A DNA stretch of 64,000 nucleotides from a bacterium (GTDB lineage Bacteria > Chloroflexota > Dormibacteria > Aeolococcales > Bog-877): assembly GCA_021816695.1 (NCBI GenBank), contig JAKAXE010000004.1:61-64060 (forward strand), read 5' to 3'. Positions 5,290 to 23,796 of this stretch are shown here, piece by piece. The position numbers were made by a program, and so were the translations under genes. The first letter of the stretch is position 1, and each line of letters begins with the position of its first letter. The notes below the pieces were generated by a model. The model was not told the origin of the DNA. It worked only from the letters and a program-made list of their open reading frames with translations, and did not search any database.

Positions 5290-6054
5290 ATGTCTGACTT
5301 CGCCACCGCCTCCTCCCCCAACCAGGCGGATGGATCCGCCCCCGCGGTAGGCGAGGTCCCGGTCCTGGAGGTGCGGCACCTCGGCCGGTCGCTGCGCCTC
5401 GGGTCCGAGGAGCTGGAGATCCTCCAGGACATCACGTTCTCCATTCCCCCGGGCGAGTTCGTCACCCTTATGGGCCCCTCGGGAAGTGGCAAGAGCACCC
5501 TTCTGGGGTGCATCACCGGGTTGGACAACCCCAGCCAGGGCCAGGTGCTGCTCAACGGGGTGGATGTGTCCAAGATGCGCGAGTCGCAGCTGGCGGGGAT
5601 CCGCAATCGCACCGTGGGCATGGTGTTCCAGGCCTTCAACCTCATCCCCACGCTGACCGCTCGGGAGAACGTCGAGGTGCCGCTCTACGCCGGGCGCTGG
5701 CGGGGCTCTCCGTCAGCCAGGGCGATCGAGCTGCTGGGTCTGGTGGGGCTCTCCCACCGGCTGGAGCACCGCCCCAACCAGCTCTCCGGTGGGGAGCAGC
5801 AGCGGGTGGCGATCGCCAGGGCGCTGGCCACCGAGCCGCCCCTGGTGGTGGCCGACGAGCCCACCGGCAACCTCGCCGCAGCCCAGGGCAAGGAGATCCT
5901 GGAGCTGCTTTGGGACCTGCGCCAGCGCATGGGCACCACCTTCGTCATCGCCACCCATGACTCCACCATCGCCGGCTATGCCACGCGGATGCTGCAGATC
6001 TCGGACGGGCGGCTGGTGGGGGACCACCCGGGACCCCGTGCGGGCGCTCGGTGA
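5290..6054 (+). CDS. ABC transporter ATP-binding protein (LolD/MacB type)
   Basis: GPSGSGKS Walker A, LSGGEQQRVAIARAL, ADEPTGNL; start refined to ATG 5290. Confidence 0.92.
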   Translation: MSDFATASSPNQADGSAPAVGEVPVLEVRHLGRSLRLGSEELEILQDITFSIPPGEFVTLMGPSGSGKSTLLGCITGLDNPSQGQVLLNGVDVSKMRESQLAGIRNRTVGMVFQAFNLIPTLTARENVEVPLYAGRWRGSPSARAIELLGLVGLSHRLEHRPNQLSGGEQQRVAIARALATEPPLVVADEPTGNLAAAQGKEILELLWDLRQRMGTTFVIATHDSTIAGYATRMLQISDGRLVGDHPGPRAGAR

Positions 6055-8789
6055 AGGCCGGGCTCTACCTCCGCTACACCACCCGCTCGCTGACCCGCGG
6101 GGGCCGCCGGACGGTTCTCGCGGCTTTCTGCGTGGGGGTCGGGGTCATGGCCATCGTGGGGCTGCAGATGGCTGCGTCGATGGTCAACAGCTCGCTGACC
6201 GCCAACGTCCGCCAGGCCAACGGGGGTGACGTGTCGGTGGTCTCGGTGGCGGTCCCCTTCCCCCAGTCCGAGCTCCGGACTTTCCAGCAGCTGCAGAGCT
6301 CGGGGAAGATCACGGCGTTCACCGCCGTGCGGGAGTACTCCTCGACGGTCATCCGCCCGGGCGGCCAGGGGGTGGCCGCGACGGTGGACGCCGTGAACCC
6401 GTCCACCTTCCCCCTGGTGGGCACGGTGGCCCTACGTCCGGGCGCTGAGGGCACCTTCCGGCAGCTGATCTCGCGCCCAGGGACGATGGTGCTCTCCTCG
6501 ACCATCGAGAGCCTGCTGGGCGCCAAGGTCGGCACCAAGGTCCGAGTCAACCTCGCGCGGGCCAAGGGACCAGTGTACTGGCGGGTGGGAGGCATCGCCC
6601 AGGGCTCCCTCCCGGCGGGGATGGACCAGGACCTCGTGGTCTCCAACGCCACCCTGAACGCCGCCGTCTCGAGTTCGGCGCTCGTTGACTACGGCGAGGT
6701 CTACCTGACCACCGCCAGCACCAAGGCCGCCTCCCAGGTGGCCCGTCAGCTGACCGACCAGCTGCCGCTGGCCACCGTCTCCACCGTCCAGCAGGCGCTC
6801 AACTCCGACAAGAACGCGAGCTCGCAGCTGACCCAGTTCCTCTCCATCGCCGGGTTGGCGGCCCTGCTCATCGGGGGGATCGGGATCGTCAACACCATGC
6901 AGGTGAGCCTGGCCCGGAGGCGGCTGGAGATCGCCATGCTCAAGACCACCGGGTACCGGCGGCGCGACCTCTACCTCCTCTTCGGCTTGGAGGCGGTGAT
7001 GCTGGGGCTGGTGGGCGGGGTGGGCGGCGCGGCAGTGGGGATCGGCCTCTCCGACGCGGTCCGCTCCCTTCTCGAGGGGGTGGCCAACGTGGTCATCAAC
7101 TTCGCCATCAGCTGGGAGATCGTCCTCGCCGGGGTGGCCATCGGTGTGGCCACCACCTGCATCTTCGCCCTCCTGCCGATCGTGAGACTGAGCCGCGTCC
7201 GCCCGGCCGCGGTCCTCAGGGACACCCCAGCGGAGGTCACGGCAGGCGTTTTGGGCTCCAGCGCCATCCTCCTGGCGGTGGTGGCAGTGTTGTTCTGGCT
7301 ACTCGCCTCGGCGATCCTGGGTTCGGCCGGCCTCGCCCTGATCCTGGTGATCGGCACCGGGGTGGCGCTCGCCGTCCTCACCCTCATCTTCAGTCAGGCG
7401 CTGCGCCTGATCGGCCACCTTCCCGTGCCGGAGGGCTTCACCCCGTCGCACGTCCTACTGGTCACCTTGGCCCTTCTTATCTCGGTGGCTATCACCACGG
7501 TCGCCAGCCTGCGGGCGGTGGGTGCGCTCCTGATCCTGGCATCCCTCCTGGGATACGTGGTGGTCGTGCTACCCCGTCCGGCCAAGGCAGTGGTGAGGAT
7601 GGCGCTGCGCAACTCGGAGCGCACCAGGACCCGCACCGCGGCCACCTCGGTGGCGCTCTTCGTGGGCGTCTTCGCGGTGGGCCTCATCCTCATCCTGGGC
7701 ACCGACATCCGCAGCGACCTCGATAGCATCATCACCCAGTCCACCACCTACAACGTGATCGCCGTGGCCCCGGGGCAGAGCGCCGCCCGCCTGGTCCAGG
7801 CGGCCCGGGGCCTGGGGAGCACCTCCGAGCTCTCCACCTCCGCGGCCATCTCCGCGCCGGTGGCGATCAACGGCCGGCCCCTGTCCCAGGTGGTCGCCCC
7901 GCTGAGCCACGGAGACCGGTCCGAGCTCGCCTTCCTCACCAGCGGCATCCAGGGCTTCTCGGTCTCCTCGGGCACCCTTCCCGACGTGACCATCAAGCAG
8001 GGCCGCCAGCTGCGACCCGCGGACGCCTCCACCAACGGAGTCCTGGTCAGCACCGCCCTCTCCCGCTCGCCGTTCAACCTCAAGGTGGGGGACACCATCA
8101 CCTCCATCGACCCCCTGGCGCCCCACGCGGCTCCAGTGACTCTCCAGGTGGTCGGGCTCTACTCGGCCACCTCCGCGGGCAGCAAGAAGGGAATATCGAT
8201 AACCACCACCGTGGCCCCCATCCTGGCCACCCAGCAGACCGCCACCGCGGTGGCCGGGAGCAACCTCCAGCAGGTCCTGGAGCTGAAGTTCCCACCCAAG
8301 CGTGCTGACGCGGCTGCCACCCAGCTGCGGAGCGCGGACCCGGGAGCTCAGGTGGTCAGCCTCGCCGACTTCACCCTGATCATCGACCAGTTCCTCAACA
8401 ACGCCATCCTCTTCCTCACCGCCATCGCCTCCCTGGCCCTGCTGGCGGGGATCGTGATCATCGCCAACTCCGTGGCCCTGGCCCTGCTGGAGCGGCGGCG
8501 GGAGATCGGCATCCTGAAGGCGGTGGGGCAGGGCCGGGGAGCGGTCCTGGGCGAGGTCCTCACCGAGACCGCCGCCGTGGCGGGGCTGGGGGCCGCCGGG
8601 GGGATGGTGGCGATCGCCCTGGTGCTGCTGCCGCTGCAGAAGCTGGTGATCAAGATCAACCTCGGCATCCCCACCCCCCTGGCGCTGGCGCTGGTTGTGG
8701 GGGCGATCCTGGTGGCGGTGGTGACCGCCGCTCTGGTGGCCTGGGGCCCGGTCCGGGTGCGCCCGCTAGAGGTTCTGCGCTACGAGTGA
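6051..8789 (+). CDS. FtsX/MacB-family ABC permease with duplicated halves (912 aa)
   Basis: Two FtsX-like modules with RRLEIAMLKTTG and RRREIGILKAVG signatures; GTGA coupling to the ATPase. Confidence 0.9.
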   Translation: MKAGLYLRYTTRSLTRGGRRTVLAAFCVGVGVMAIVGLQMAASMVNSSLTANVRQANGGDVSVVSVAVPFPQSELRTFQQLQSSGKITAFTAVREYSSTVIRPGGQGVAATVDAVNPSTFPLVGTVALRPGAEGTFRQLISRPGTMVLSSTIESLLGAKVGTKVRVNLARAKGPVYWRVGGIAQGSLPAGMDQDLVVSNATLNAAVSSSALVDYGEVYLTTASTKAASQVARQLTDQLPLATVSTVQQALNSDKNASSQLTQFLSIAGLAALLIGGIGIVNTMQVSLARRRLEIAMLKTTGYRRRDLYLLFGLEAVMLGLVGGVGGAAVGIGLSDAVRSLLEGVANVVINFAISWEIVLAGVAIGVATTCIFALLPIVRLSRVRPAAVLRDTPAEVTAGVLGSSAILLAVVAVLFWLLASAILGSAGLALILVIGTGVALAVLTLIFSQALRLIGHLPVPEGFTPSHVLLVTLALLISVAITTVASLRAVGALLILASLLGYVVVVLPRPAKAVVRMALRNSERTRTRTAATSVALFVGVFAVGLILILGTDIRSDLDSIITQSTTYNVIAVAPGQSAARLVQAARGLGSTSELSTSAAISAPVAINGRPLSQVVAPLSHGDRSELAFLTSGIQGFSVSSGTLPDVTIKQGRQLRPADASTNGVLVSTALSRSPFNLKVGDTITSIDPLAPHAAPVTLQVVGLYSATSAGSKKGISITTTVAPILATQQTATAVAGSNLQQVLELKFPPKRADAAATQLRSADPGAQVVSLADFTLIIDQFLNNAILFLTAIASLALLAGIVIIANSVALALLERRREIGILKAVGQGRGAVLGEVLTETAAVAGLGAAGGMVAIALVLLPLQKLVIKINLGIPTPLALALVVGAILVAVVTAALVAWGPVRVRPLEVLRYE

Positions 8790-9490: not shown

Positions 9491-10291
9491 TCAGTGGGCG
9501 ACCCAGCCTCCATCGATCGGGAGCGCGGCACCGGTGATCGTGGCCGCTTGGGGTCCACAGAGGAAGACGGTGAGCTCGCCCACCTGTTCTGGGGTGGTGA
9601 AGCGGCTGAGGGGCTGAGTCTCGGCCAGCATCTGCCGCTTGGCCTCCTCGATGGATGTGCCGGCCGCCTCAGCCCGCTCCTCGAGCTGGCGCGCCACCAG
9701 GGGGGTGAGCACCCAGCCGGGGCAGATCGCGTTCACGGTAACCCCGGAGTCGGCGGCCTCGATGGCGGCCACCTTGGTGGCCCCGACCACCCCGTGCTTG
9801 GCGGCGACGTAGGCGACCTTGCTGCCGCTGGCAACCAGCCCGTGGGCAGAGGCGATGTTCACGATCCGTCCCCAGCCTCGCTCTTCCATCACGGGAAGGG
9901 CGTAGCGCATCCCGTAGAAGACCCCGGAGAGGTTGACAGCGATGATCCTCTCCCACCTCTCCAGGGGGAACTCGGTGAGCCTCGCCACATGCTGGAGGCC
10001 GGCATTGTTCACCAGGATGTCCAGTCCCCCGAACTCTGCCACCGCCGCCGCCACCATTGCCGCCACCGCCTGCGGGTCGGCGACGTCCGCACCATGGTGC
10101 CGGACAGGGACTTTGAACTCGTTCTCCAACCCGAGCCGGAGTGCCTCCACCGTGGCCGGATCGCCGAACCCGTTGAGCATCACCGCCGACCCGGAGCGGG
10201 CCAGAGCTCTGGCTATCCCCCAGCCGATCCCGCTCGTGGAACCGGTGACGATGGCCACTCGCCCGTTCAGCTGCTCAGCCTCCACCACCAT
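9491..10291 (-). CDS. bdhA: 3-hydroxybutyrate dehydrogenase (SDR)
   Basis: TGSTSGIG, LNGFGD, NNAGLQHVA, YVAAKHG; SD GGAGG upstream of ATG 10291. Confidence 0.88.
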   Translation of the reverse strand: MVVEAEQLNGRVAIVTGSTSGIGWGIARALARSGSAVMLNGFGDPATVEALRLGLENEFKVPVRHHGADVADPQAVAAMVAAAVAEFGGLDILVNNAGLQHVARLTEFPLERWERIIAVNLSGVFYGMRYALPVMEERGWGRIVNIASAHGLVASGSKVAYVAAKHGVVGATKVAAIEAADSGVTVNAICPGWVLTPLVARQLEERAEAAGTSIEEAKRQMLAETQPLSRFTTPEQVGELTVFLCGPQAATITGAALPIDGGWVAH

Positions 10292-11801
10292 GGGCCTCCT
10301 CCCAGCGCTCGCGGAGTGCGCTCCGCCGGACCTTCCCCCCCTCAGTGGCGCGGGGAAGCTCCGCCACCACCACGACTTCCTTCGGCACCTTGAAGCCGGC
10401 CAGCCGTCCCCGCGCGAATCGGACCAGCTGCTGGGCATCGATCTCCGCTCCCTCCTTGGTGATGACGAAGGCGACTCCAACCTCCCCCCACCGAGAGTCG
10501 GGAACGCCCACCACCACCGCCTCGGCAACCTGGGGGTGGCTGGCGAGGACCTGCTCGACCTCGGCGGGGTACACGTTCTCGCCCCCGGAGATGTACATCT
10601 CACTGAGCCGTCCGAGCAACCAGTAGAAGCCGTCCTGGTCGCGCTCCGCCAGGTCCCCGGTGTGGAGCCAGCCCTGGGAGAGAGCCGCTGCCGTCGCCTC
10701 GGGCCTTCCCCAGTAACCCTGGAAGACGTTGGGGCCCCGCACCAGGAGCTCTCCCCTCCCGGGCCCGTCCAGCAGGGGCGGATCGAGGTCCTCCCCATGC
10801 GCCCGCTCCAGCGCCACCTCCACGTGGAGGTAGGGCCTGCCAGCCGAGCCGACCTTGGTGCGGCTGTACTCGGGCGGCACGCACAGCACGTTGGGCGAGG
10901 CCTCTGTCAGGCCGTAACCCTGAAGCACCGTCACCCCGCGGTCCAGCCAGAGCTCCAAGAGTCCTCTCGGCATGGCGGCGCCGCCGACGACCACCATCCG
11001 CAGGCTGGTGAGGTCAGTGGCGCCGAAGGCCGGATGCTCGGAGAGGAACAGGTAGTTGGTGGGGACGCCCATCATGGTGGTGACTCGGCGCTCGGCGATC
11101 AGGGCGAGGACCCGGCCGGCGTCGAAGCGGGGCTCCAAGAGCAAGCGGGCGCCGTGCCAGATGGCCTGCAGTGGCTGGACGTTCCACCCCCCGACGTGGG
11201 ACTGGGGGAGCACTTGGAGCACCACGTCGCTGCCCGCCAGCTCCGCGGTACGGTCGAGGCTCAGATTGGTCCAGAAGCAGTTGGACTGGGTCAGGACCGC
11301 TCCCTTGGGGGCTCCCGTGGTCCCTGAGGTGTAGATGATGAGCAGGGGATCGGAGCCGCGAGGCGGCGGAGTGGTCACCAGCCGAGAGGACGCCTCCTCG
11401 AGGTCGGAGAGCGGCAGCACCCGGACCTCGGGCCCGGATGCGGCCGCCTGGGCCGCCTCCTCGAGCTCACTGCCACTGAGCAGCAGGGTGGCTCCGCAGT
11501 CCCTCAACTGGAACTCCAGCTCCGGGGCCGCCAGCCGCCAGTTCAGCGGCACCATGATCAGCCGGGAGGAGGCGCAGGCGAAGAGTAGGGCGATCTGGTC
11601 GGGGCTGTTCTGGGACAGGGTGGCAATCCGGTCGCCGGGGCGCAGGCCCAGCGCCGCCAGTGCCGCCTGGATCGTGGCCGTACGGAGGGCCAGCTCCCGA
11701 TAGGTAAGAGATCCACCTCCGAACTCGACGGCCACCCGGTCGGGGGTCAGTGCGGCCCGTTGCGGGAGCCAGTCCGCGATGGTCGTCTCACCCTGGACCA
11801 T
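10275..11801 (-). CDS. Acyl-CoA synthetase (AMP-forming, FadD/MenE-like)
   Basis: YTSGTTGAPKG, QGYGLTE, HTGDL, YISGGENVYPAEVE. Confidence 0.92.
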   Translation of the reverse strand: MVQGETTIADWLPQRAALTPDRVAVEFGGGSLTYRELALRTATIQAALAALGLRPGDRIATLSQNSPDQIALLFACASSRLIMVPLNWRLAAPELEFQLRDCGATLLLSGSELEEAAQAAASGPEVRVLPLSDLEEASSRLVTTPPPRGSDPLLIIYTSGTTGAPKGAVLTQSNCFWTNLSLDRTAELAGSDVVLQVLPQSHVGGWNVQPLQAIWHGARLLLEPRFDAGRVLALIAERRVTTMMGVPTNYLFLSEHPAFGATDLTSLRMVVVGGAAMPRGLLELWLDRGVTVLQGYGLTEASPNVLCVPPEYSRTKVGSAGRPYLHVEVALERAHGEDLDPPLLDGPGRGELLVRGPNVFQGYWGRPEATAAALSQGWLHTGDLAERDQDGFYWLLGRLSEMYISGGENVYPAEVEQVLASHPQVAEAVVVGVPDSRWGEVGVAFVITKEGAEIDAQQLVRFARGRLAGFKVPKEVVVVAELPRATEGGKVRRSALRERWEEAHGGGG

Positions 11802-11803
11802 CC

Positions 11804-12811
11804 TCAGCCCCAGGTGATCACGGTCGCCGCCCAGGTGTACCCCGTGCCGGCGGCGATGAGGAGCAGGTTCTGCCCGGCGCGCAGATGGCCGGCGCGTGCC
11901 AGGCGGTCGAGGCCCAGGATCGGATCAGCACCACTCAGGTGGCCGGTGTCCTCCAGGTAGATCGATCTCTCGGGGGAGGACCCCAGGGCCGCGAGCAGGG
12001 AGGTGTGCATCGAGCGCTTCATGTGGATGGGCAGGACCCAGTCCACCTGGTCGAGGGTCAGCCCGGAACGAAGCAGTGCCTCCTTCGCGACCGCCACGAA
12101 GTTGGGCAGGCTCACCTCGCCCAGGCGGGCCCTCATCCCCTCGAGGTCCTCCACGTCGAGGAAGTGGAGGCGCTGGTCCACCGTGAGGTGAGAGGCGGGA
12201 AGCGCCGATCCCCCGGCGGGGATCTTGACGTGCTGGCTTAGCGTACCGTCGGTGAGCGTGCTCGAGCCGCGGACTAGGTTGTGCGGGTGGTCCCGGGTCA
12301 GGAGGGCTGCCACCGCCCCGTCCCCGAAGTTGAACATGAAGCGCGAGCGCTGGTTGGCGTAGTCGAGGAGCCGGGACTCACAGCTGGCGGCCACCATGAG
12401 GATGGTTCCCGCTCCCGGGTCGGACGAGGCCAGCGCCTTGGCCACGCGGAGCGCCACCGGGGCTCCGCAGGAGACGTAGTCGAGCTCCAGGGCGAACGCC
12501 CTACGGCAGCCGAGCCGCTCCTTGACCCGCGGAGCCGCCTGCCAGACCGGATAGTCCTTCCAGGTGGAGCCGAAGTACAGGACGGCATCCACGTCCAGCG
12601 GGTCGACGCCTTGCTCCTGCAATAGAGTGCGTCCAGCCTCGACTGCCATGGTGCTGGGGTGCTCCTCGGGACCGGCGAGGTGTTTGCCCGAGATCCCGAA
12701 CCGCCCGACCAGGACCTCTTCTGGGATGCCGCTGAGAACCGAGAGTTCGGCCGCCGGTAACCAGCCCTCGGGCAGGTAGTGGGCCGTTGCGACCAGCCCC
12801 ACCTCAGCCAT
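11804..12811 (-). CDS. 3-oxoacyl-ACP synthase III-like (FabH fold) condensing/acyltransferase
   Basis: Catalytic Cys in YVSCGA, FGDGAVA, His in PIHMK, GHLSGAD and AAGTGYTW. Confidence 0.85.
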   Translation of the reverse strand: MAEVGLVATAHYLPEGWLPAAELSVLSGIPEEVLVGRFGISGKHLAGPEEHPSTMAVEAGRTLLQEQGVDPLDVDAVLYFGSTWKDYPVWQAAPRVKERLGCRRAFALELDYVSCGAPVALRVAKALASSDPGAGTILMVAASCESRLLDYANQRSRFMFNFGDGAVAALLTRDHPHNLVRGSSTLTDGTLSQHVKIPAGGSALPASHLTVDQRLHFLDVEDLEGMRARLGEVSLPNFVAVAKEALLRSGLTLDQVDWVLPIHMKRSMHTSLLAALGSSPERSIYLEDTGHLSGADPILGLDRLARAGHLRAGQNLLLIAAGTGYTWAATVITWG

Positions 12812-13472
12812 TTGGCCCCTCCCCCTCCCCGGCAGGGGCAGCCGCGACGCCGAGGGCCCGGGCCACGAACGCCATGGTCCGGTCGAGGATCTCCGGCGGG
12901 ACGGCCTTGGCCTCGTCCCAGAGGATCCAGCGCATGCCGATCATCTCGCCCACCGCCATCAGGGCCCAGGCGGTGACTTCGGGGTCTGCTTCGGCGATCT
13001 CGCCCCGGGCGGAGGCCAAGCGCAGCGCCTCAGCGTAGCCGTCGGCGATGTGCTCATAGTGCCAGTGGAGCATGCGCGGCGAGGCGAACTCGGCCTGGCG
13101 GATCACCCGGTATAGCGCCGGGTGGTCCGCGGTGAAGCGGAAGAAGGCCTGGAAACCGAGGCGCTCCGCCTCGAGGCGGTCACGTCCGTGGCCGGAGGCA
13201 ACGGACATGGCGTGGCGCACCCGACGGCTGAGGTCCGCCACCAGCTCTTCGAAGACCGCCTGCTTGCCGTCGAAATAGCGGTAGAAGGTGCCCTGGGCGA
13301 CCCCGGCCAGCTCGGTGATCTTGGCCACGGAGGCGTCGTGGTATCCGAGTTCGCCAAAGACCTGCTCCGCGGCACCCAGCAGCCGTTCCCTGGTGCGCGC
13401 CCCCTTGGTGCCGGCAGCAGCCGCCACGGCCGCGACCGCCACTCCGCCCGAGCCGACCCGCACCCGGCTCAT
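12804..13472 (-). CDS. TetR-family transcriptional regulator
   Basis: HTH ASVAKITELAGVAQGTFYRYFDGK. Confidence 0.92.
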   Translation of the reverse strand: MSRVRVGSGGVAVAAVAAAAGTKGARTRERLLGAAEQVFGELGYHDASVAKITELAGVAQGTFYRYFDGKQAVFEELVADLSRRVRHAMSVASGHGRDRLEAERLGFQAFFRFTADHPALYRVIRQAEFASPRMLHWHYEHIADGYAEALRLASARGEIAEADPEVTAWALMAVGEMIGMRWILWDEAKAVPPEILDRTMAFVARALGVAAAPAGEGEGPNG

Positions 13473-14551
13473 GTTCGGCCCCCGAGAAAGCGGCCCACCA
13501 CGGCCGCGAACTCCTCGGGGTGCTCGAGATGGGGTGAGTGCCCGCAGTCAGCCAGCACCACCTCTTCTACCCTGGTACCGGCCTTACGGCACTCGGTGAG
13601 CACCGCCCTCGTCTGGGTCACCATGGGTTGGGCTGGGTAAACCTCAGCTCCGGGCCATCCGGGGATCAGCCCCAGCTCTGCCAGGTGCCCGATCTCGCTG
13701 AGGGACTGGTCCGACACGATCTGGTCATCGGCACCGCGGACCCAGAGGATGTCAGGCCCGGGCCGCAGCTCGGCAATGGCGCTCAGGTCGCAGTAGCGGG
13801 GCGAGATGGAGTTGACCACCCCCCGGGTCCCGGGGGCGACGTAGGGCCAGTGCGGGCTGGGCTCGCTGTCGCCCGGATAGTTGCCATCCCCGATCACAGT
13901 CGACAGCATGGCGCTGAGCAACTCCTCCTCCCACTCCGGTGGCAACCGCCTGCCGGGCTTCATGTACAGGGTATTCATCACCCGGCGGGGAGAGAGGTCG
14001 CTCTCTTCGCTCCGATCCGCGGCCGCCAGACGGCGGACCAGCTCGGGGTTGGCGGTGCCCCCGCCCGAGCCGGCAAAGTCCGGCCAGCAGGGGGTGCCAT
14101 CCGCGTCTCGGGTGCCCCCGAATCCCCGGGGGGACATCGGGCTCTCCAGAACCAGGGCGGAGACCATGCTGGGGTGATCCATTGCGAACTGCAGCGCGAC
14201 TCCGCCCCCCATGGACCACCCGAGGATGGGAAGCGGCTGACCCGGAGCGGTGACCTCAGCAACTCTCAGGAATTCGAAGAGATCATCGCCGAAGTCGCGC
14301 AAGCCGCGAGTGGCGTCAACCGGAAGCGCCTCCGAGCCGCCGAAGCCACGGAGGTCGGGCGCCCACACCCTCCACTCTCCCGCCAGCCGCAGTATCAGGT
14401 CCTGAAAGAAGCGCGCGCAGGAGACGTTTCCGTGGATCAGCACCAGCGCCGGCGCCGCGGGCGGACCGGCCACCAGGGCCTGCATCCGGACCCGCGGGGT
14501 CGGCACGGTCACCCGCTCGATCTCTGCAATCCGGCCGAGGTCGTGCATCAT
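13469..14551 (-). CDS. Alpha/beta-fold hydrolase (esterase/depolymerase-like)
   Basis: LIHGN oxyanion loop, GWSMGG nucleophile elbow, GHSPHLE; ATGA overlap with the upstream permease. Confidence 0.9.
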   Translation of the reverse strand: MMHDLGRIAEIERVTVPTPRVRMQALVAGPPAAPALVLIHGNVSCARFFQDLILRLAGEWRVWAPDLRGFGGSEALPVDATRGLRDFGDDLFEFLRVAEVTAPGQPLPILGWSMGGGVALQFAMDHPSMVSALVLESPMSPRGFGGTRDADGTPCWPDFAGSGGGTANPELVRRLAAADRSEESDLSPRRVMNTLYMKPGRRLPPEWEEELLSAMLSTVIGDGNYPGDSEPSPHWPYVAPGTRGVVNSISPRYCDLSAIAELRPGPDILWVRGADDQIVSDQSLSEIGHLAELGLIPGWPGAEVYPAQPMVTQTRAVLTECRKAGTRVEEVVLADCGHSPHLEHPEEFAAVVGRFLGGRT

Positions 14552-15660
14552 GAGGGGGCCTCCTTGACATGACTCGCCCGCCGGGGCAGGCGCTGCGCCA
14601 GACCGGCGAGCCCGCCGGGAACGAAGATGACGAACAAGATGAAGATGGCCCCCAGCAAGAAATCGGGCTGGGAGAGGGGGATCCGCAGTGGCCCGGGAAG
14701 GCTGGCGAAGGCTGGGAGGCCGCTGAAGCCGAGCAGGTACTGCTGCAGGTAGACGTACACCATGGCTCCCAGCGCCGGGCCCCAGAGGCTGCCGGCTCCG
14801 CCCAGCACCACCATCACCAGGATGGAGACGGTCACCGAGGTGGAGGCCACACTCGTGGGCGCGGCGGTTCCGACCAGAAGCAGATAGACGACCCCCCCGG
14901 CGCTGGACACCACGGACGAGAGGACGAATGAGGCCAGCTTGAACGGGAATGGCCGGTAACCCATGACCTCGACCCGTAGCTGATTGTCTCGGATGGCCGT
15001 CCACACCAGCCCTGCGGCCGAGCTGGAAGCCCACCAGGCCAGCAGCAGCGCCACCACCAGGTAGCCTAGTGCCACCCAGTACAGATTAGGCGTGTTGGCG
15101 ACCCCCACCAGAAAGCCGGGGAGCCGGGAGCTGGAGAGGACCAGCCCGGTGTCGCCGCCGGTCAGGCCCAGAGGATTGGACTGGGCGAGGAAGTAGCCCG
15201 CCTGGGCGAAGGCCAGGGTGACCATGGCGAAGGCGATTCCCCCCACTCTGAGGCAGATGGACCCCAGGGCCAGCGCCACGACGATGGCGGAGGCAAGCGT
15301 GAGCACGAGTGCCGGCCCGGGCGACCAGCCCCAGTCCGAGATCGCGATGTCGAACACGTAGACGCCTAGGGCGAAGTACAGCGCGGGCCCGAACGAGAGC
15401 AGACCGGTACGGCCGAAGAGGACGTCGTATCCCACCGCCACTCCGGCGAAAACCAGGCAGAGCCCCAGGACCTGCAGGGTCCCTGCGGAGTTGACCGGCG
15501 CCGCCGGCCCAGGCATGAGGCCGGGAACCGAGAACCCCAACAGGGGCACCACGGCGAGCAGTACCAGGACGACGGCAAGAACCCCCCGGGGCAGGCGGCT
15601 AGACGGCCCACCTGTGAGCCGGGCCCTGAGGGCGGCCAGCTGGGGGCTGAGCGGCCTCAT
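14548..15660 (-). CDS. Branched-chain amino acid-type ABC permease (LivM-like)
   Basis: GRTGLLSFG, IAFAMVTLAFAQ, GGDTGL, VVLGGAGSLWG. Confidence 0.9.
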   Translation of the reverse strand: MRPLSPQLAALRARLTGGPSSRLPRGVLAVVLVLLAVVPLLGFSVPGLMPGPAAPVNSAGTLQVLGLCLVFAGVAVGYDVLFGRTGLLSFGPALYFALGVYVFDIAISDWGWSPGPALVLTLASAIVVALALGSICLRVGGIAFAMVTLAFAQAGYFLAQSNPLGLTGGDTGLVLSSSRLPGFLVGVANTPNLYWVALGYLVVALLLAWWASSSAAGLVWTAIRDNQLRVEVMGYRPFPFKLASFVLSSVVSSAGGVVYLLLVGTAAPTSVASTSVTVSILVMVVLGGAGSLWGPALGAMVYVYLQQYLLGFSGLPAFASLPGPLRIPLSQPDFLLGAIFILFVIFVPGGLAGLAQRLPRRASHVKEAPS

Positions 15661-16559
15661 CGCGCCTCTCCCATGAGCCCGGAGGGGCGCACCAGGAGCA
15701 CCACCGCCAGGAGCAACACCACCGAGATGCTGCCCATCTGAGCGAGCCCGCCGGTGCCCGCGTAGAAGCTGACGTAGTCCTGGAGCATCCCCACCATCAC
15801 GGCGGCGAGGGCCGAGCCCCAGAGCGACCCCAGGCCGCCAATCACGACCACGATGAAGGCAAAGATCAAGAGCGAGTCGCCCTGGGTGGGGCTCACCAGG
15901 GCCCCGGAGAACACCACGCTGTTGAGGATCCCAGCCAGGCCGGCCGCCGCCCCCCCGATCACGAAGACCAGGGTGAAGGCTCGGCGGACGTTGATCCCCA
16001 GGGCCGCGACCATGTCCCGGTTCTCCACCCCGGCCCGAATGATCAGTCCATAGCGGGCGTGGCCCAGGAACCAGACCAAACCGAGCAGTACGGCGGCCCC
16101 CGCTCCCAAGGCCACGAAGTCAGCATTGGGCAGGATTTCGGGCCCAACGCGCGTGGCCCCCGCGAGCCACGAGGGAACCGGAACCGCCTGGGAGTTGCTT
16201 CCGAAAACTCCCAGCAGCAGCGCCACCACCACCAGGTCGAGTCCCACGGTGACCAGGATCTGGCTGACCGGGCGGCGATAGAGAGGCCGGATCAGGGCCA
16301 CCTCCGTGGCCCCGGCGATGACCGCCCCGGCCAGCACCGCCACCACCACCGCGACCAGGAAGCGCTCGGGGGCGCTCACCGACGCCGGAAGGTGTGTGGC
16401 GGTCACCCAGGCCGCGTAGGCGCCTACGGTGAGGAAGGCACCGTGGGCGAAGTTGAGCACCTCCATCAGTCCGTAGATCAACGAGAGGCCGGAGGCCACC
16501 AGGAAGTAGATCGCGCCCAGCGCCAGGCCGCTGAAGCTGATGGCGATGAAGGTGCTCAC
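15657..16559 (-). CDS. Branched-chain amino acid-type ABC permease (LivH-like)
   Basis: GLSLIYGLMEVLNFAHG, VVVIGGLGS, RPSGLMG. Confidence 0.92.
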   Translation of the reverse strand: MSTFIAISFSGLALGAIYFLVASGLSLIYGLMEVLNFAHGAFLTVGAYAAWVTATHLPASVSAPERFLVAVVVAVLAGAVIAGATEVALIRPLYRRPVSQILVTVGLDLVVVALLLGVFGSNSQAVPVPSWLAGATRVGPEILPNADFVALGAGAAVLLGLVWFLGHARYGLIIRAGVENRDMVAALGINVRRAFTLVFVIGGAAAGLAGILNSVVFSGALVSPTQGDSLLIFAFIVVVIGGLGSLWGSALAAVMVGMLQDYVSFYAGTGGLAQMGSISVVLLLAVVLLVRPSGLMGEAR

Positions 16560-17266
16560 TCTGGCCCCGAGACCCCAACCAACCGCCGCGCCAGGTTCTC
16601 ATCACTGAGCTCGTCCGCGGGCCCCTCGTGGACCACCTCACCGTGGTCCAGGACCAGCACTCGCTGCGCCAGGCGGCGGACGACGTGCACGTTCTGCTCG
16701 ACGAGGAGAATCGTCGCCGAGGAGCTGAGCTGCGCCAGCACTTCGACCACCTCGCCCACCAACTTGGGGGCTAACCCTTTGGTGGGCTCGTCCACTAGCA
16801 GCAGGGGGCGGACCCGAAGCAGAACCCGGGCGATCGCCAGCATCTGCTGCTGCCCCCCGGAGAGAGTCCCGGCCGCCTGGCGGCCGCGCTCCTGTAACTC
16901 CGGAAACAGGGAGTACACCCGGGGATAGTCGCCGCTGAGCCCGGCCTCGGCGAGACGCAGATTTTCCGCCACCGTGAGGCGGGTGAATATCTCCCGCTCC
17001 TCGGGAACGTAGCCCACCCCGAGCTGGGCGATGCGGTGCGTGGGCCAGCCGCGGACCTCCTGACCCATGATCCTGGCCGACCCGGTGCTGGGAACGAGCC
17101 CCAGGAGGGCCTTCAAAGTCGTGGTCTTGCCCACCCCGTTCCGCCCCATCATGGCGGTGACCCCGCCCGCCGCCACGCTGAAGCTGACCCCTTGGAGGAT
17201 GTGCGCTCCCCCCAGCCGCACGTGAAGATCGCTGACCTCCAACATCGGGGGCGCCGAGCCGCTCAC
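16556..17266 (-). CDS. ABC ATP-binding protein (LivF-like)
   Basis: GRNGVGKTT, LSGGQQQMLAIAR, DEPTKGLAP. Confidence 0.92.
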   Translation of the reverse strand: MSGSAPPMLEVSDLHVRLGGAHILQGVSFSVAAGGVTAMMGRNGVGKTTTLKALLGLVPSTGSARIMGQEVRGWPTHRIAQLGVGYVPEEREIFTRLTVAENLRLAEAGLSGDYPRVYSLFPELQERGRQAAGTLSGGQQQMLAIARVLLRVRPLLLVDEPTKGLAPKLVGEVVEVLAQLSSSATILLVEQNVHVVRRLAQRVLVLDHGEVVHEGPADELSDENLARRLVGVSGPE

Positions 17267-18033
17267 AGTGGGTCGCCCAGGTAAACGGCCTGGACAGTGG
17301 TGTCGCTCGCCACTTCCTCGGGCGTGCCGCAGGTCAGCAGCCTGCCGTGGTGGAGGACGGCGACCCGGTCTACCAGTCCCATGACCACTGCCATGTGGTG
17401 CTCCACCATGAGCACGGTCCTCCCTCCCTGGCGGAGCCTGGCAATCAGCTGCACCAACTCCGGCACGTCTTCGCGGTTCACGCCGGCCATCGGCTCATCC
17501 AGCAGCAGGGTCCGCGCTCCGCCGGCCAGCAGTATGGCCAGCTCGACCTTACGTCGGTCCCCGTGGGACAGGGCCGCCACCGGGCGATCTGCCAACTTCT
17601 CCAGCCCCACTGCTCTCACCGCCTCCACGGCCAGGCCCTGGGCTGGATCACCCGGCCGCAGGCGTGCCCACCAATGGGGGTGGGCACCGGCCCGGGCTAG
17701 GGCCGCCAAGCGGGCGTGGTCCAGGGGAGAGAGTGCCGCAAACACGGTGGAGGATTGAAATGTCCGGCCTAACCCCAAGCGGGCTCTAGGAGCCGGCCCC
17801 AGCCCCGCCAGGTTGCGGCCCTCGATCTCGACCTGCCCCGCCGTCGGCGTGAGCAACCCCGAAAGTAGGTTGAACAACGTGGTCTTGCCCGCTCCATTAG
17901 GCCCAATTACGCCAAGGCACTCACCCTGGGCCACCTCCAAGTCAACGTCTTGGAGAATGTCCAGCCCCCCCACCCGGAAGCCCAGCCCTGAGAGCCGCAC
18001 CGCGGGCGGCTCAGGGCTGGGCCGTGCAGCCAC
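17263..18033 (-). CDS. ABC ATP-binding protein (LivG-like)
   Basis: GPNGAGKTT, LSHGDRR, LDEPMAG, VYLG C-terminus. Confidence 0.92.
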   Translation of the reverse strand: MAARPSPEPPAVRLSGLGFRVGGLDILQDVDLEVAQGECLGVIGPNGAGKTTLFNLLSGLLTPTAGQVEIEGRNLAGLGPAPRARLGLGRTFQSSTVFAALSPLDHARLAALARAGAHPHWWARLRPGDPAQGLAVEAVRAVGLEKLADRPVAALSHGDRRKVELAILLAGGARTLLLDEPMAGVNREDVPELVQLIARLRQGGRTVLMVEHHMAVVMGLVDRVAVLHHGRLLTCGTPEEVASDTTVQAVYLGDPL

Positions 18034-18036
18034 CGG

Positions 18037-19254
18037 TCAGTTGCTGAGGTGGGCCGCCACCGGCGGCGCGGTGTCTGCCGGGGTCAGGGTGCGCACCAGC
18101 TGGGGAACGAACAGCTGCGGGGTTTGCTCCACCAACTTGGCCTGGTACATGGGCTGGAGCATGGCATGGTCGGAGGGCCTGATCTGCTGCTCCCCCTTAG
18201 GCGCCAGGAAGCTCCAACCGGCCAGCCCCTTGATCATGGCGTTGACGTTGGTCCCACCTCCTGTCGCGATGGCCCGCGCCACCATCTGGGCGGCCACAAA
18301 GCCGTCGGGTGCAAAGAGGTCAGGCACCGTGTTGTACAGCTTCTTTTCCATCTTGACCAGGTAGAGGTTGGGGGCGTTGTGCGACGCCTGGTAGAAGTAC
18401 AGCGAAAGGTAGTCGAATTTGGTGCCCGTGGCGCCGTAGAACGGATAGGTCGCGATGTTGGCCAGCCCGGTTACCACCTTGACCCCGTTGAAGTCGCCCT
18501 GCTGGTCGAGGGCCTGGGCCAGCGGCGCCCCGGTCGTTCCGGCCCAGGCCAGGAAGATCAGGTTCGGGTTCAGCTGCTTGACCTGGAGGGCCGTGGGGGT
18601 GAAGTCCGTGGTGGTGAGCGGCACCAGCACGGGGACCACCGTGTCACCGAGAGCGGTGAACACCTGCTGGGCGTCCGTCACGTAGGACTGCCCAAAGGCA
18701 TAGTCCTGAGCCAGAACCACGATTTTCTGGCCCGGCCCGGCACTGGAGATAAAGGACTTCGCGGCCATCACGTCCTGGTAGGTCTGGCGTCCGGAGCGGA
18801 AGGTGTAGCGGTTCGCCCCGGTGATCTGATCCGCAGCCGCCGGACCGGAGATGTAAAGGACCTGGTTCTGCGCCGCCAGCGGTGCCAGCTGGGTGGCGAT
18901 CCCCGAGTCCACCGTCCCGCCGATGATCTTGTAGCCCTCGCCGACAAGGCTCTTGAAGTCGGTCACGGCGGTGGTCGCACTGTCGCCGTCGTCGGACCAG
19001 GTCACCTGCACCGGGTGGCCGTCCACCTTGCCGGTCCCGTTGGTGGCGTAGTCCATCCCGATGGTGAATCCCTGCCGGTACTCCTGCGCGTAGATGGAGT
19101 AGATGCCCGTGGCCTCGGTGAGCATCCCGACCTTCACCGGGGAAGAACCCGGAGAGCTCCCGGGGCTGGGGCTTGACCCGCCGCACCCGGCGATAGCCAG
19201 CGTAAGGCCCGCCGCCCCCGCGGCGGCTCCGAGGCGCCCTGTGCTCCAGCGCAT
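18037..19254 (-). CDS. Lipoprotein substrate-binding protein of the Liv-type ABC system
   Basis: Lipobox IAGC; YTFRSGR, AQDYAFG and IRPSDHAMLQP; SD GGGAGG before ATG 19254. Confidence 0.9.
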   Translation of the reverse strand: MRWSTGRLGAAAGAAGLTLAIAGCGGSSPSPGSSPGSSPVKVGMLTEATGIYSIYAQEYRQGFTIGMDYATNGTGKVDGHPVQVTWSDDGDSATTAVTDFKSLVGEGYKIIGGTVDSGIATQLAPLAAQNQVLYISGPAAADQITGANRYTFRSGRQTYQDVMAAKSFISSAGPGQKIVVLAQDYAFGQSYVTDAQQVFTALGDTVVPVLVPLTTTDFTPTALQVKQLNPNLIFLAWAGTTGAPLAQALDQQGDFNGVKVVTGLANIATYPFYGATGTKFDYLSLYFYQASHNAPNLYLVKMEKKLYNTVPDLFAPDGFVAAQMVARAIATGGGTNVNAMIKGLAGWSFLAPKGEQQIRPSDHAMLQPMYQAKLVEQTPQLFVPQLVRTLTPADTAPPVAAHLSN

Positions 19255-19276
19255 CCTGGTCCCTCCCAAAAGTGAG

Positions 19277-19322
19277 GACTGAGTCAGGCGTCGAGTATGC
19301 TCATCGTAGGCGCTCCTGTCAA
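19277..19322 (-). promoter_or_regulatory. Sigma70-type promoter TTGACA(19322-19317)-N17-CATACT(19299-19294) with a downstream GACTGAGTC dyad (19277-19285)
   Basis: Exact -35 consensus and 17-bp spacer read directly from sequence, upstream of the SBP-led operon. Confidence 0.7.
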
Positions 19323-19576: not shown

Positions 19577-20209
19577 TCAGAGTGGGCTGGGTCGACCCTC
19601 TGGTAGGGCTCCCTCACGGTTGCCCGGAGGGCGGCGCATGATCCGGAAGTGCGGTGCTCCAGGCCTCCGCACCTCGTCCACCACCTCAAAGCCACGGCGC
19701 TGGTAGAAGGCGACATCCTCGGCGGTGACGGTGTCCAGGGTGGCGGGAAGGCGCTCTTGGTCGCAGCGCCGGAGGACCGGCTGGAGCACCGCGGTGCCCA
19801 GCCCCCGACCCTGGAGATCCGGCTCGGTCCCCAGCGCCGCTAGGTACCAGGTGGGCTCTCGCGGATGGCGGCGGTGGACCTCCAGGTTCACCGAGAGCGC
19901 CGCGAGGAGCCGGGTGCGCAGCGCGACCCCGATCCGGAGGTTGAGGCCGAGCTGGCGCCAGATGTGGGGCCTGGCTCCACGCCGGGGAACCCCCATGGGC
20001 AACCACAGTGCTGCTGCGGAGAGGTCGTCGGTGACCCATCCCTCCCCCGCGTCCTGCAGCGCCATCACGTTGAGGCAGTACCAGCGCTCCAGCCGCCGCT
20101 CCCGGCCGCGCGTCGAGGGAAACAGCCACTCCGTGGTGGGGTCCGTGGCGAAGGCCCGCGCCAGCATGGCGCCCACCTGGGGAACGTCGCCGTCGCGCAG
20201 CTCCCGCAC
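19577..20209 (-). CDS. GNAT-family N-acetyltransferase
   Basis: WYLAALGTEPDLQGRGLGTAVL acetyl-CoA motif; NxxFY-like EDVAFYQRRGFEVV. Confidence 0.88.
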   Translation of the reverse strand: MRELRDGDVPQVGAMLARAFATDPTTEWLFPSTRGRERRLERWYCLNVMALQDAGEGWVTDDLSAAALWLPMGVPRRGARPHIWRQLGLNLRIGVALRTRLLAALSVNLEVHRRHPREPTWYLAALGTEPDLQGRGLGTAVLQPVLRRCDQERLPATLDTVTAEDVAFYQRRGFEVVDEVRRPGAPHFRIMRRPPGNREGALPEGRPSPL

Positions 20210-21139: not shown

Positions 21140-21979
21140 GTGGCACCGGCAGCGCCCCCGGGGATCGCGGCGCTGGCCGCCCCCCTGATCAGGCTGGCAA
21201 GACGTGGCAGCCTGCTGGTGGCCACCGACTTCGACGGCACCCTGGCGCCGGTGGTCCGGGACCCGGACCGCGCCGCCCCTCTCCCGGAGGCCCGCCTGGC
21301 GCTGGAGAAACTGGCCTCTCACACCCCCGTGGCGGTCATCAGCGCCCGCGACCTGGCCAATCTCGCCTCGCGCTGCCGGATCACCGGGGCGCTCCTGCTG
21401 GGCAGCTACGGCCAGGAGCCCTGGCTCCAGCTGAGCTCCGGCGAGCCACCTCCGTCTCCCCCTCGCCCCCGCCCAGAGCTCCTCCAGCTGGCCCAGGAGC
21501 TCTCCGCCTACACCGCCGAGATGCCCGGGGTCGGGGTGGAGGTCAAGGCGCTGGGGGTGGCGGTCCACTACCGCAACTCCCCGGAGTCTCGCCGGGTCGG
21601 CCCGCTGATCCGCCGCCAGGTGGAGGAGCTCTGCCGGAGCCACCAGCTGCAGGTGGTCCGGGGACGCCAGGTGGTGGAGGCCCGACCATTCCGGAGCGGC
21701 AACAAGGGGACGGCCCTCCGCCTGCTCCTGGACCGCCTCGGGCCCCGCGGCTGCGTCTATGCCGGGGACGACCTGGGAGACCTCCCGGCGATGCGGGAGC
21801 TGCATGCAGAGCGTGGCCAGCTGGAGCTGGCCGCCGCGGTGGGGGTGGCGAGCTCGGAGGTGAACCCCGAACTGGTGGCTGAGGCGGACCTTCTCCTGGA
21901 TGGTCCTAAGGAGTGGGCCAGGCTCCTGGCCGAGGTCGCCATGGGGCTGGACCGACCTACTGGGCCAGCAGGTCGTTGA
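21140..21979 (+). CDS. otsB: Trehalose-6-phosphate phosphatase (HAD)
   Basis: TDFDGTLAPVV, AVHYR, NKGTAL, YAGDDLGD. Confidence 0.88.
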   Translation: MAPAAPPGIAALAAPLIRLARRGSLLVATDFDGTLAPVVRDPDRAAPLPEARLALEKLASHTPVAVISARDLANLASRCRITGALLLGSYGQEPWLQLSSGEPPPSPPRPRPELLQLAQELSAYTAEMPGVGVEVKALGVAVHYRNSPESRRVGPLIRRQVEELCRSHQLQVVRGRQVVEARPFRSGNKGTALRLLLDRLGPRGCVYAGDDLGDLPAMRELHAERGQLELAAAVGVASSEVNPELVAEADLLLDGPKEWARLLAEVAMGLDRPTGPAGR

Positions 21980-23456: not shown

Positions 23457-23796
23457 AGGATGACGGAAGCCGGTCACTCCGGGGGCTGTCTCAATTCGAG
23501 GTCGGGCAGGGGCACGGCCACGAGTAGGGATGATGCGGACGCCCGCTCTGGGCTGACCGGCTGGGGGACGGCCCTGCTCCAAGCATCGCGGAGAGCGTTG
23601 CTGAGAGATCGTGGCATTCGGTCCTGCGGGAGGCGATGTCGCTCCCCGGAGCAGTCGGCTCCAGCCGCGCCGAGCTGGAGCGCACCAGCGTGAGGGCCGG
23701 TGAGGCGCCGGGCCAGCGAGTCAGGGCTCGCCGCCGCCACAGGTCCGCGGCGAACGGCCGCACCCACGGCGCCGGCACCGCCGTGGCGGGAGCGAC

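Follow-up and report, generated by a model that had tools for sequence, protein, structure and literature searches.

A conserved operon around a KASIII-fold enzyme of the PRK06840 family, possibly serving the catabolism of 3-hydroxybutyrate-type compounds

Which compound would a bacterium import, and through which reactions would it be broken down, with an operon that joins a Liv-type ATP-binding cassette (ABC) importer to a serine hydrolase, a TetR-family regulator, an enzyme of KASIII fold, an acyl-CoA (coenzyme A) ligase and a D-3-hydroxybutyrate dehydrogenase? Such an operon lies on the minus strand of a 64,000-nt stretch of a Dormibacteria genome (hereafter the window, meaning the whole stretch, to which all coordinates refer unless a related locus is named). 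The operon is conserved, so far uncharacterised and probably catabolic, and its key enzyme comes from an unstudied branch of the KASIII fold. Judging from the sequences, our leading reading, held tentatively and with a little less than half of our confidence, is that it would be a TetR-repressed unit for the uptake and breakdown of a small 3-hydroxy-acid-type substrate, most likely (R)-3-hydroxybutyrate (3HB) or short 3HB esters or oligomers.

Ten genes, one promoter and a palindrome

An earlier note on this DNA had described ten genes on one strand, overlapping or nearly abutting, and this description holds: they are intact minus-strand open reading frames (ORFs) between 9491 and 19254, none with an internal stop, with gaps of +3, −4, −4, −4, −4, −4, −8, +2 and −17 nt in gene order. 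Each of the families named at that time is matched by Pfam and NCBIfam models. First comes a substrate-binding lipoprotein (SBP) of a HAAT/Liv-type importer (18037–19254; 405 aa, lipobox LAIAGC, Pfam Peripla_BP_6), followed by a LivG/UrtD-like ATPase (17263–18033), a LivF/UrtE-like ATPase (16556–17266), a LivH/UrtB-like permease (15657–16559) and a LivM/UrtC-like permease (14548–15660), these four being assigned by Pfam and NCBIfam. Next is an alpha/beta serine hydrolase of 360 aa with a large conserved lid (13469–14551; recognised by Pfam, by alignment and by an AlphaFold2 (AF2) model searched with Foldseek). The TetR-family regulator (12804–13472; TetR_N) has a start codon that overlaps the hydrolase stop and a stop codon that overlaps the start of the KASIII-like gene (11804–12811), whose product passes the cut-off of the family NF005308/PRK06840. 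The operon closes with a FadD/MenE/Fcs-like acyl-CoA ligase (10275–11801; 508 aa, AMP-binding domain 280 bits) and a D-3-hydroxybutyrate dehydrogenase of the short-chain dehydrogenase/reductase (SDR) type (9491–10291; 266 aa, TIGR01963 and PRK12429), for which we preferred the start at 10291 to one at 10282.

The same gene set was sought in two groups of genomes. For close relatives, one genome per species was scanned, which gave 435 stretches encoding a protein related to the KASIII-like one. We retained the best 80 (56–99% identity; for the most part Actinomycetota, including Gaiellales and Acidimicrobiia, plus a few Chloroflexota) and compared them by tblastn with the ten window proteins. 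Only loci with enough flanking sequence were counted, so that the denominators differ. In 74 of 77 of these close loci the TetR gene immediately precedes the KASIII-like gene, and five ABC genes, all upstream and on the same strand, are present in 50 of 58 (at least three of them in 53 of 58). The ligase gene is just upstream of the KASIII-like gene in 53 of 66 loci and just downstream in 9, making 62 of the 66 in total. For distant relatives we used a phylum sample of 401 genomes (the denominator includes six unpublished ones, none of them positive), 28 of which encode a PRK06840 protein above the cut-off. Twelve loci were fetched from among these positives, with KASIII-like proteins 39–48% identical to that of the window; the ligase is adjacent in 11, and the hydrolase family (44–53% identity) is found in 8, ABC parts in 8, a TetR gene in 7 and a 3HB dehydrogenase in 4.

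The ten genes form one operon, and their arrangement is not due to chance, since the set recurs in related as well as distant genomes; it is an old association, not a local accident. This survey of 80 close and 12 distant loci bears out the statement that similar clusters occur in other bacteria, and the gene set, whose conservation had been left to be checked, is conserved. It had also been said that the cluster lacked a biochemical definition, and our literature search found no description of it. Among the 46 sampled genomes of the window's own class, none apart from that of the window has the PRK06840 family, and 9 of the 46 have the hydrolase; given this absence from class-mates the distribution is patchy, which suggests that the KASIII-like/ligase core was patchily inherited or transferred.

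In the close loci, the constant core consists of transporter, ligase, TetR and KASIII-like protein, mostly with a MaoC hydratase: in 45 of 77, a MaoC gene of 144 aa lies at most 170 nt behind the KASIII-like gene. Around this fixed core, accessory modules seem to be exchanged. A FabG-like SDR follows the KASIII-like gene in 15 of 72 close loci, and locus L003 encodes a 3-hydroxybutyryl-CoA dehydrogenase (Hbd; 486 bits, above the cut-off of 319). Among the distant loci, the one without an adjacent ligase (L083) has a butyryl-CoA:acetate-type CoA-transferase instead; a transferase of this type is also present in L107. L093 has a tannase/3HBOH-like gene (tannase/feruloyl-esterase family) and L098 a crotonase. 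In the closest relatives of the window's cluster, the genes 3' of the ligase vary as well: a beta-lactamase-fold, esterase-like protein in L002 (10643–11959), two Zn-dependent alcohol dehydrogenases with a MIP channel in L004 (12727–15958), and an MFE-2-type double hot-dog hydratase with a luciferase-like monooxygenase in L007 (13391–15183).

A sigma-70-like promoter, TTGACA-17 nt-CATACT, lies upstream of the SBP gene on the minus strand (19294–19322) and agrees with the consensus at 10 of 12 positions. The promoter claimed earlier is thereby borne out, the upper end given for the operon, 19322, being the first base of the −35 hexamer. It is the one sigma-70-like site between 9000 and 20500, where shuffled sequence gave 0.5 on average, and a TTGACA at the equivalent place is visible in most of the related loci compared. 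A GGGAGG Shine-Dalgarno sequence stands 5' of the SBP start.

Directly 3' of the −10 box is an operator-like palindromic motif, CCTGACTCAGTCCTCA (19270–19290, minus strand), a putative TetR site and a new element relative to the earlier note. Its pattern, TGANTC[AG]NNN[CG]TC[AG], was found in 56 of 58 regions upstream of the SBP gene, compared with 45 of 5000 random windows of 360 nt drawn from these loci; examples besides that of the window are ACCTGAATCGGGTCTCAGGTTT in L013 and AGGTGAATCACCTCTCAT in L012. Symmetric variants (AGGTGAATCACCT and ACCTGAATCAGGT) retain a 13-mer palindrome with a centre of 1 nt, and the arms vary symmetrically (AGGTGA-A-TCACCT versus ACCTGA-A-TCAGGT). Such symmetric changes around a one-base centre suit a dimeric DNA-binding protein and make an RNA hairpin impossible, while the overlap of the palindrome with the likely transcription start implies repression. 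The TetR protein encoded within the operon (TetR_N 52.6 bits, cut-off 24; all specific NCBIfam regulator models far below their cut-offs, e.g., ScbR 56 against 150) is the obvious candidate to bind the palindrome, and the conservation of the motif at the operon promoter would tie this embedded regulator to the whole unit.

What the operon would import

One pointer to the substrate is the SDR, which is a D-3-hydroxybutyrate dehydrogenase by two curated sequence cut-offs (TIGR01963, 322.5 against 307.05 bits; PRK12429, 324.8 against 258) and matches solved D-3HB dehydrogenases with E values of 1e-89 to 8e-90. Aligned without gaps to 1wmb, it has matching residues at S145, Y158 and K162 and at Q97, H147, K155 and Q199 (numbering of the 263-aa query); the latter four correspond to Q94, H144, K152 and Q196 of the P. 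fragi enzyme, which we take to be the carboxylate binders. A 3HB dehydrogenase also stands beside ligase, KASIII-like or hydrolase genes in 7 further loci, namely 4 distant ones (335–349 bits against the TIGR01963 cut-off of 307) together with L001, L006 and L105. In L006 it lies directly 3' of the ligase (318 against 307 bits), which is itself split into two overlapping ORFs (10768–12565; AMP-binding domain positions 3–297, then 299–384 plus the C-terminal domain) by a frameshift or a sequencing error.

The hydrolase carries a GWSMGG nucleophile motif with an invariant Ser, an invariant His342 in the alignment across loci, and a long lid with strong conservation among the same loci; no signal peptide is visible in its sequence, and the protein is probably cytoplasmic. 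Its top sequence match is PhaZ, the intracellular polyhydroxybutyrate depolymerase of Bacillus thuringiensis (E 4e-19), and with the AF2 model (pLDDT 87.8) Foldseek places PhaZ (8ynv/8ynw) at ranks 1 to 6 (8ynv: E 3e-20, TMt 0.77), the next esterases following at 2e-17; the names in the ESM Atlas are only generic ones. A profile of the hydrolase is positive in 87 of the 401 phylum genomes: 23 of the 28 that have the KASIII-like family, versus 64 of the 373 that do not, and in 21 of the 28 the two genes are at most 7 kb apart. A view of the hydrolase as a marginal member of the set, to which the close loci would lead, is overturned by the 12 distant loci and by this co-occurrence at genome level.

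The genome, which is 89% complete, has no detectable polyhydroxyalkanoate (PHA) synthase, so that the substrate would come from outside. The importer is a complete HAAT/Liv-type system of one SBP, two permeases and two ATPases, and its parts lie outside the curated Liv families: the SBP (Peripla_BP_6, 185 bits) misses both the LivJ-type model NF011933 (31.9 against 477) and UrtA (46.3 against 492.75), and the other components fall below LivG (173.8 against 362), LivF (151.9 against 441), LivH (78.3 against 379) and LivM (49.9 against 366). The closest PDB matches of the SBP are the R. palustris proteins 3n0x/3nnd (E 5e-45), followed by further R. palustris chains, 4f06, 4evs, 4ey3 and 4evq (E 4e-22 to 3e-15). 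No ligand for 3N0X or 3NND was found in the literature, and PMC3223731 mentions neither. That paper does report that, of 22 R. palustris COG0683 proteins with binding unlike their annotation, very few gave a response with Leu, Ile or Val, their ligands being aromatic, fatty and dicarboxylic acids (PMC3223731).

The earlier suggestion that this Liv transporter would not carry branched-chain amino acids is supported by the LivJ score and by these R. palustris relatives. That we are dealing with an ordinary branched-chain amino acid importer which happens to lie beside unrelated metabolic genes seems to us highly improbable. Pfam does label the permeases and an ATPase tail as branched-chain amino acid transport; against this stand not only the LivJ score but also the translationally coupled junctions, the synteny in 50 of 58 loci and the promoter/operator motif shared by 56 of 58. 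The same conclusion is favoured by L001, a metagenome-assembled genome, where the transporter was swapped for another Liv-type system and the promoter, operator and enzymes were kept. This locus is 93.6% identical to the window at nucleotide level over 12.7 kb (window 14482–1819), and retains the promoter and operator, which are 77% identical over 78 nt, as well as the hydrolase, TetR, KASIII-like, ligase and dehydrogenase genes. The non-orthologous system sits between promoter and hydrolase (L001 3266–8202 versus window 14552–19254) and comprises a fused permease-ATPase of 937 aa, another ATPase and an SBP with only 25% identity across 95 aa.

Several observations weigh against a 3HB-type substrate. 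The hydrolase scores 96.5 bits with the short-chain-length PHA depolymerase model NF050089, whose cut-off is 300 (homologues in L084, L086, L088 and L011 score 93–110); its similarity to PhaZ is confined to the generic fold core, residues 37–171, and its lid is different and larger. Five of 12 hydrolase loci from genomes without the KASIII-like family proved to be unrelated neighbourhoods. Of the 80 close loci, 5 have a hydrolase gene at any place, and a dehydrogenase with 50% identity or more is present in 1 of 68, to which L006 adds one more diverged 3HB dehydrogenase that passes TIGR01963; in these loci the 3HB-specific parts are therefore accessory. A separate acetoacetyl-CoA synthetase-family gene (586 against 521 bits) and four canonical thiolases are encoded elsewhere in the genome, and with these housekeeping enzymes neither a second ligase nor a KASIII-fold 'thiolase' would be needed for the use of 3HB. 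L103 and L107 carry a true thiolase beside a KASIII-like gene of another type. Finally, the closest PDB matches of the ligase are feruloyl-CoA synthetases (8weu/8wev; E 1e-118 to 7e-118), and the SBP chains 4f06, 4evs, 4ey3 and 4evq are, we presume, binders of aromatic acids (benzoate derivatives). The earlier proposal of 3HB-type uptake and catabolism thus stands as far as the dehydrogenase and the nearness of the hydrolase to PhaZ are concerned, and is weakened by the position of the hydrolase below the family cut-off; as to its further idea, a CoA activation of acetoacetate, the genome has the separate synthetase-family gene besides the ligase of the operon.

The matches of ligase and SBP would fit a catabolism of plant aromatic acid esters such as hydroxycinnamates, in which an esterase and an Fcs-like ligase would be followed by beta-oxidative shortening of the side chain by MaoC, SDR and KASIII-fold enzymes. 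The tannase/feruloyl-esterase-family gene of L093 points the same way, and an enoyl acid as starting compound would explain the lack of an acyl-CoA dehydrogenase. We nevertheless consider this quite improbable, given the 3HB dehydrogenase that passes a curated cut-off in the window and in 7 other loci, the Hbd and C4-type CoA-transferases of related loci, and the annotated flanks, in which no ring-cleavage or vanillin/benzoate genes were seen. In addition, we know of no ligand for the top SBP matches 3n0x and 3nnd, which we count against an aromatic substrate. No paper on 8WEV/8WEU was found, and the ligase falls below the cut-offs of all NCBIfam ligase models.

Returning to 3HB-type compounds, we infer the substrate, the order of steps, the TetR ligand and the KASIII-fold reaction from the sequences as follows. 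The lipoprotein SBP and the HAAT-type importer would take up a 3HB compound that other organisms have made outside the cell; the cytoplasmic PhaZ-like hydrolase would cut its ester bonds; the 3HB dehydrogenase would form acetoacetate; and the FadD/Fcs-like ligase would form the CoA thioester. The PRK06840 enzyme would then act on a C4 (3-oxo- or 3-hydroxyacyl) CoA ester, our preferred guess being a thiolase-like C–C cleavage to acetyl-CoA. TetR would shut the promoter through the palindrome over the transcription start, and a pathway intermediate would release it. The accessory genes are consistent with such a scheme: every accessory enzyme noted beside the ligase/KASIII-like pair, several esterases included, would have as its substrate a C4 acid, a short 3-hydroxy, 3-oxo or enoyl acid, or an ester of one of these, and those seen in other loci (MaoC, FabG-like, Hbd, C4-type CoA-transferase and archaeal-type thiolase) would point to the acetoacetyl-CoA node. 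As the 3HB dehydrogenase, the FabG-like SDR and MaoC would be alternative entries of an (R)-3-hydroxy acid into beta-oxidation, we read the operon as one for inducible (R)-3HB-type catabolism.

The KASIII-fold enzyme and its candidate reactions

The KASIII-like protein scores 386 bits with NF005308/PRK06840 (cut-off 315; 386.7 in the genome search) over model positions 4–336 of 339. It contains the Pfam domains ACP_syn_III (43.1 bits) and ACP_syn_III_C (73.1 bits), fails the fabH models (TIGR00747, 116.7 against 292.1; PRK09352, 128.6 against 249) and gave no match to the Pfam thiolase domains Thiolase_N and Thiolase_C. Its AF2 model has a pLDDT of 97.5, and the top structures found by Foldseek are BioZ and FabH (TM 0.85–0.93, 22–26% identity). 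The family is sizeable, with 2722 proteins at E ≤ 1e-20 among the 8000 scored, and 116 clusters at 50% identity (E ≤ 1e-30); Thermoflexus hugenholtzii and an Aeromicrobium are among its carriers. Cluster members and the ESM Atlas offer only the generic name '3-oxoacyl-ACP synthase' (ACP, acyl carrier protein), which is probably wrong, and our literature search found no paper on the family.

Catalytic columns were read from an alignment to the FabH of N. meningitidis and to the genome's own FabH; for the E. coli enzyme, we take the triad to be C112/H244/N274. The column of the FabH Cys holds Ser114, followed by Cys115, where FabH has Cys-Ser. The His column holds Ile262, and a histidine, His263, comes one residue later, within an invariant H-x-K-[RP]-S; in place of the FabH Asn there is His291, within an invariant G-H. 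By this alignment the Cys-His-Asn triad of FabH is absent, and Ser-Cys/His/His would take its place. In the 12 distant members, the nucleophile position is Cys in 9 and Ser alone in L090 and L091; the branch of the window has Ser-Cys, and P0122, P0123 and P0129 have Ser alone. In P0116 (60% identity), Met replaces Cys115 (VSMG) and Asn replaces Tyr112, with Ser114 kept, which hints that Ser114, not Cys115, is the essential residue.

A second kind of KASIII-like protein occurs beside the hydrolase family in three loci (L103, 4831–10801; L107, 4694–10302; L083, 8983–17661), in a set with an archaeal-type thiolase, a C4-type CoA-transferase and a BTAD regulator, to which L083 adds biotin carboxylase and biotin carboxyl carrier protein (BCCP). 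In L103 and L107, where the hydrolase family adjoins an archaeal-type acetoacetyl-CoA thiolase (PRK06064, 446 and 455 bits against 420; with a DUF35 protein in L103), the KASIII-like proteins have Cys/Gln/Tyr at the three columns and are 23–24% identical to the window enzyme.

What reaction might such an enzyme catalyse? The ligase/KASIII-like pair would work at the node of acetoacetyl-CoA or 3HB-CoA. A thiolase-like cleavage fits the missing step, and no canonical thiolase was found within the 92 related loci by a search whose positive control worked; the fold and a His-His pair like that of KAS I/II fit a condensation. Our proposal, which we regard as rather unlikely to be right in full, is that PRK06840 is a catabolic KASIII-fold enzyme with a Cys/Ser-His-His set, always paired with a ligase in a TetR-controlled uptake operon, which cleaves 3-oxoacyl-CoA (acetoacetyl-CoA) or, with CoA, the ester bonds of 3HB compounds. 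If true, a CoA-dependent cleavage of 3HB esters would give 3HB-CoA directly and conserve the energy of the ester bond. Two related ideas were set aside. The notion that the KASIII-like enzyme stands in for a missing thiolase or ligase is weakened by the four thiolases and the acetoacetyl-CoA synthetase-family gene of the genome. A reading as an HMG-CoA synthase-like enzyme (HMG, 3-hydroxy-3-methylglutaryl) was rejected on account of a weak N-terminal similarity (45 against 244 bits) and the absence, in the alignment, of a Glu from its presumed catalytic place.

That the nucleophile position toggles between Cys and Ser is easier to reconcile with acyl transfer than with Claisen-type chemistry, and thus speaks against the thiolase-like cleavage. 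The pathway might accordingly be the same one with a different last enzyme: an acyltransferase that moves a 3-hydroxybutyryl group from an oxo-ester such as a 3HB dimer or oligomer to CoA, a thiolytic ester cleavage saving one ATP, or, as a variant of the same idea, passes an acyl group from CoA to a different acceptor. For the ligase this would leave the activation of leftover free acid, and MaoC, the FabG-like SDR or Hbd would feed (R)-3HB-CoA into beta-oxidation. Besides the nucleophile (Cys in most of the 12 distant members, Ser alone or Ser-Cys in others), there are KASIII-fold acyltransferases among the sequence matches, namely DpsC (4xs7, E 5e-18), which uses Ser, and CerJ (3s3l, E 5e-13), which forms esters. 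The 45 of 77 close loci that have no ester hydrolase and carry MaoC directly next to the KASIII-like gene would fit an (R)-3-hydroxyacyl-CoA product, and the invariant Lys and Arg/Pro-Ser after His263 (HMKRS) could hold a free carboxylate. Conversely, hydrolase and KASIII-like protein co-occur in 23 of 28 genomes, so that neither is a mere substitute for the other; at the third catalytic position there is a His, whereas known KASIII-fold acyltransferases have Asp; and we know of no precedent for such a reaction, which we count against it. Overall, an acyltransferase role, in either variant and with the ligase confined to leftover acid, appears distinctly unlikely.

The fold and the Cys-His-His set, which is that of the KAS I/II condensing enzymes, would instead suit scavenging or elongation. 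In such a pathway, the ligase would activate a short or medium acid, the KASIII-fold enzyme would condense it with malonyl-ACP or malonyl-CoA in the manner of FabH, BioZ or V. cholerae FabH2, and FabG-like and Had/MaoC-like enzymes would perform the later FAS-II-type steps, so that the acid enters lipid synthesis. Both the KASIII Pfam domains and the top structural neighbours, BioZ and FabH, all of them condensing enzymes, favour this; so do the 15 of 72 loci with KASIII-like, MaoC and FabG-like genes (ketosynthase, dehydratase and ketoreductase) in a row, the weak match of the MaoC of L089 to HadA/HadB dehydratase models, that of TetR to FasR and FadR models, and the biotin carboxylase and BCCP beside the cluster in L083. 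The gene content argues otherwise. The earlier note had stated that no ACP gene is present, and none was found in the window or in the 92 related loci (two lie on other contigs of the same genome). Ordinary FabH is encoded separately in the genome, and the window enzyme misses the cut-off of the fabH model. An importer governed by a local repressor is characteristic of catabolism; the 3HB dehydrogenase (8 loci), the ester hydrolase, Hbd and the CoA-transferases do not suit elongation, and neither does the Ser that some family members carry at the place of the nucleophile. We therefore hold a role in lipid synthesis to be improbable.

Flanking genes, known systems and significance

The genes flanking the operon are unrelated to it. 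Upstream, beyond the promoter, there is a GNAT gene (19577–20209, minus strand), and downstream a MacB/FtsX-type permease (6051–8789, plus strand) is convergent to the operon. 5' of the latter, a PLP-dependent (pyridoxal phosphate) decarboxylase ORF (2858–5128, minus strand) overlaps a long plus-strand ABC ATPase ORF (4153–6054), whose true start is probably much later than the start of the ORF. On the upstream side and on the strand of the operon lie a GT20 trehalose-6-phosphate-synthase-like gene (21957–23582) and a canonical thiolase (23797–25203), the latter 4.5 kb from the operon promoter and outside the conserved set. Farther away (27193–30893, minus strand), a 2-oxoacid:ferredoxin oxidoreductase-type gene (POR/POR_N) adjoins that of a 623-aa protein with Fer4 and pyridine-nucleotide-disulphide oxidoreductase domains.

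The classical route for fragments of polyhydroxybutyrate (PHB) consists of an oligomer hydrolase, BdhA, an acetoacetyl-CoA synthetase or a CoA-transferase, and a PhaA/BktB thiolase. The operon shares its logic of hydrolysing, oxidising, activating and cleaving, with an ester hydrolase, a 3HB dehydrogenase, a CoA-activating enzyme and a member of the thiolase superfamily. It differs in that the hydrolase is outside the 3HBOH family and under the short-chain-length PHA depolymerase cut-off, the ligase is FadD/Fcs-like and not of the 650-aa acetoacetyl-CoA synthetase type, and the last enzyme has a KASIII fold instead of a Pfam thiolase domain; furthermore, uptake is by a Liv-type ABC system and all genes are under one promoter, putatively controlled by TetR. 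A PF01144 CoA-transferase was not found in the genome.

Individual components also have known counterparts. With FabH, BioZ, DpsC and CerJ, the window enzyme shares the fold, the two Pfam domains and a glycine-rich C-terminal loop; unlike FabH, it belongs to an uptake operon that lacks an ACP gene. The hydrolase resembles B. thuringiensis PhaZ (8ynv) in its GxSxG serine nucleophile and its predicted cytoplasmic location. It is, however, only 22% identical, about 60 residues longer and equipped with a distinct, strongly conserved lid, and in a genome without a detectable PHA synthase it would not serve to mobilise granules of the cell itself. In L103 and L107, a thiolase-superfamily set for acetoacetyl-CoA recalls the archaeal thiolase/HMG-CoA synthase/DUF35 complex and PhlABC; the window operon, unlike the archaeal complex, has neither DUF35 nor an SCP-x-type thiolase. 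As for the transporter, PMC3223731 describes R. palustris HAAT-type systems for aromatic, fatty and dicarboxylic acids that adjoin CoA-ligase genes, e.g., beside pimFABCDE. The window transporter likewise adjoins an activating ligase, and its SBP has its nearest solved relatives in R. palustris; its partners, unlike those of the pim, hba and cou clusters, are a KASIII-fold enzyme, a PhaZ-like hydrolase and a 3HB dehydrogenase.

The case adds to the evidence that 'branched-chain amino acid' annotations of ABC systems mislead, and the cluster places a sizeable KASIII-fold branch that is still unstudied in a defined genomic and regulatory context. PHB ranks among the major carbon stores of soil and water, its fragments commonly serve as food, and the use of 3HB oligomers by organisms that do not produce the polymer is poorly mapped; the cluster offers a testable route for such oligomers, with a dedicated importer and regulator. 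If our proposal for the PRK06840 enzyme is true, its reaction type would be new for the KASIII fold, and soil Actinomycetota and Chloroflexota that make no PHB would be feeding on the PHB fragments of others.

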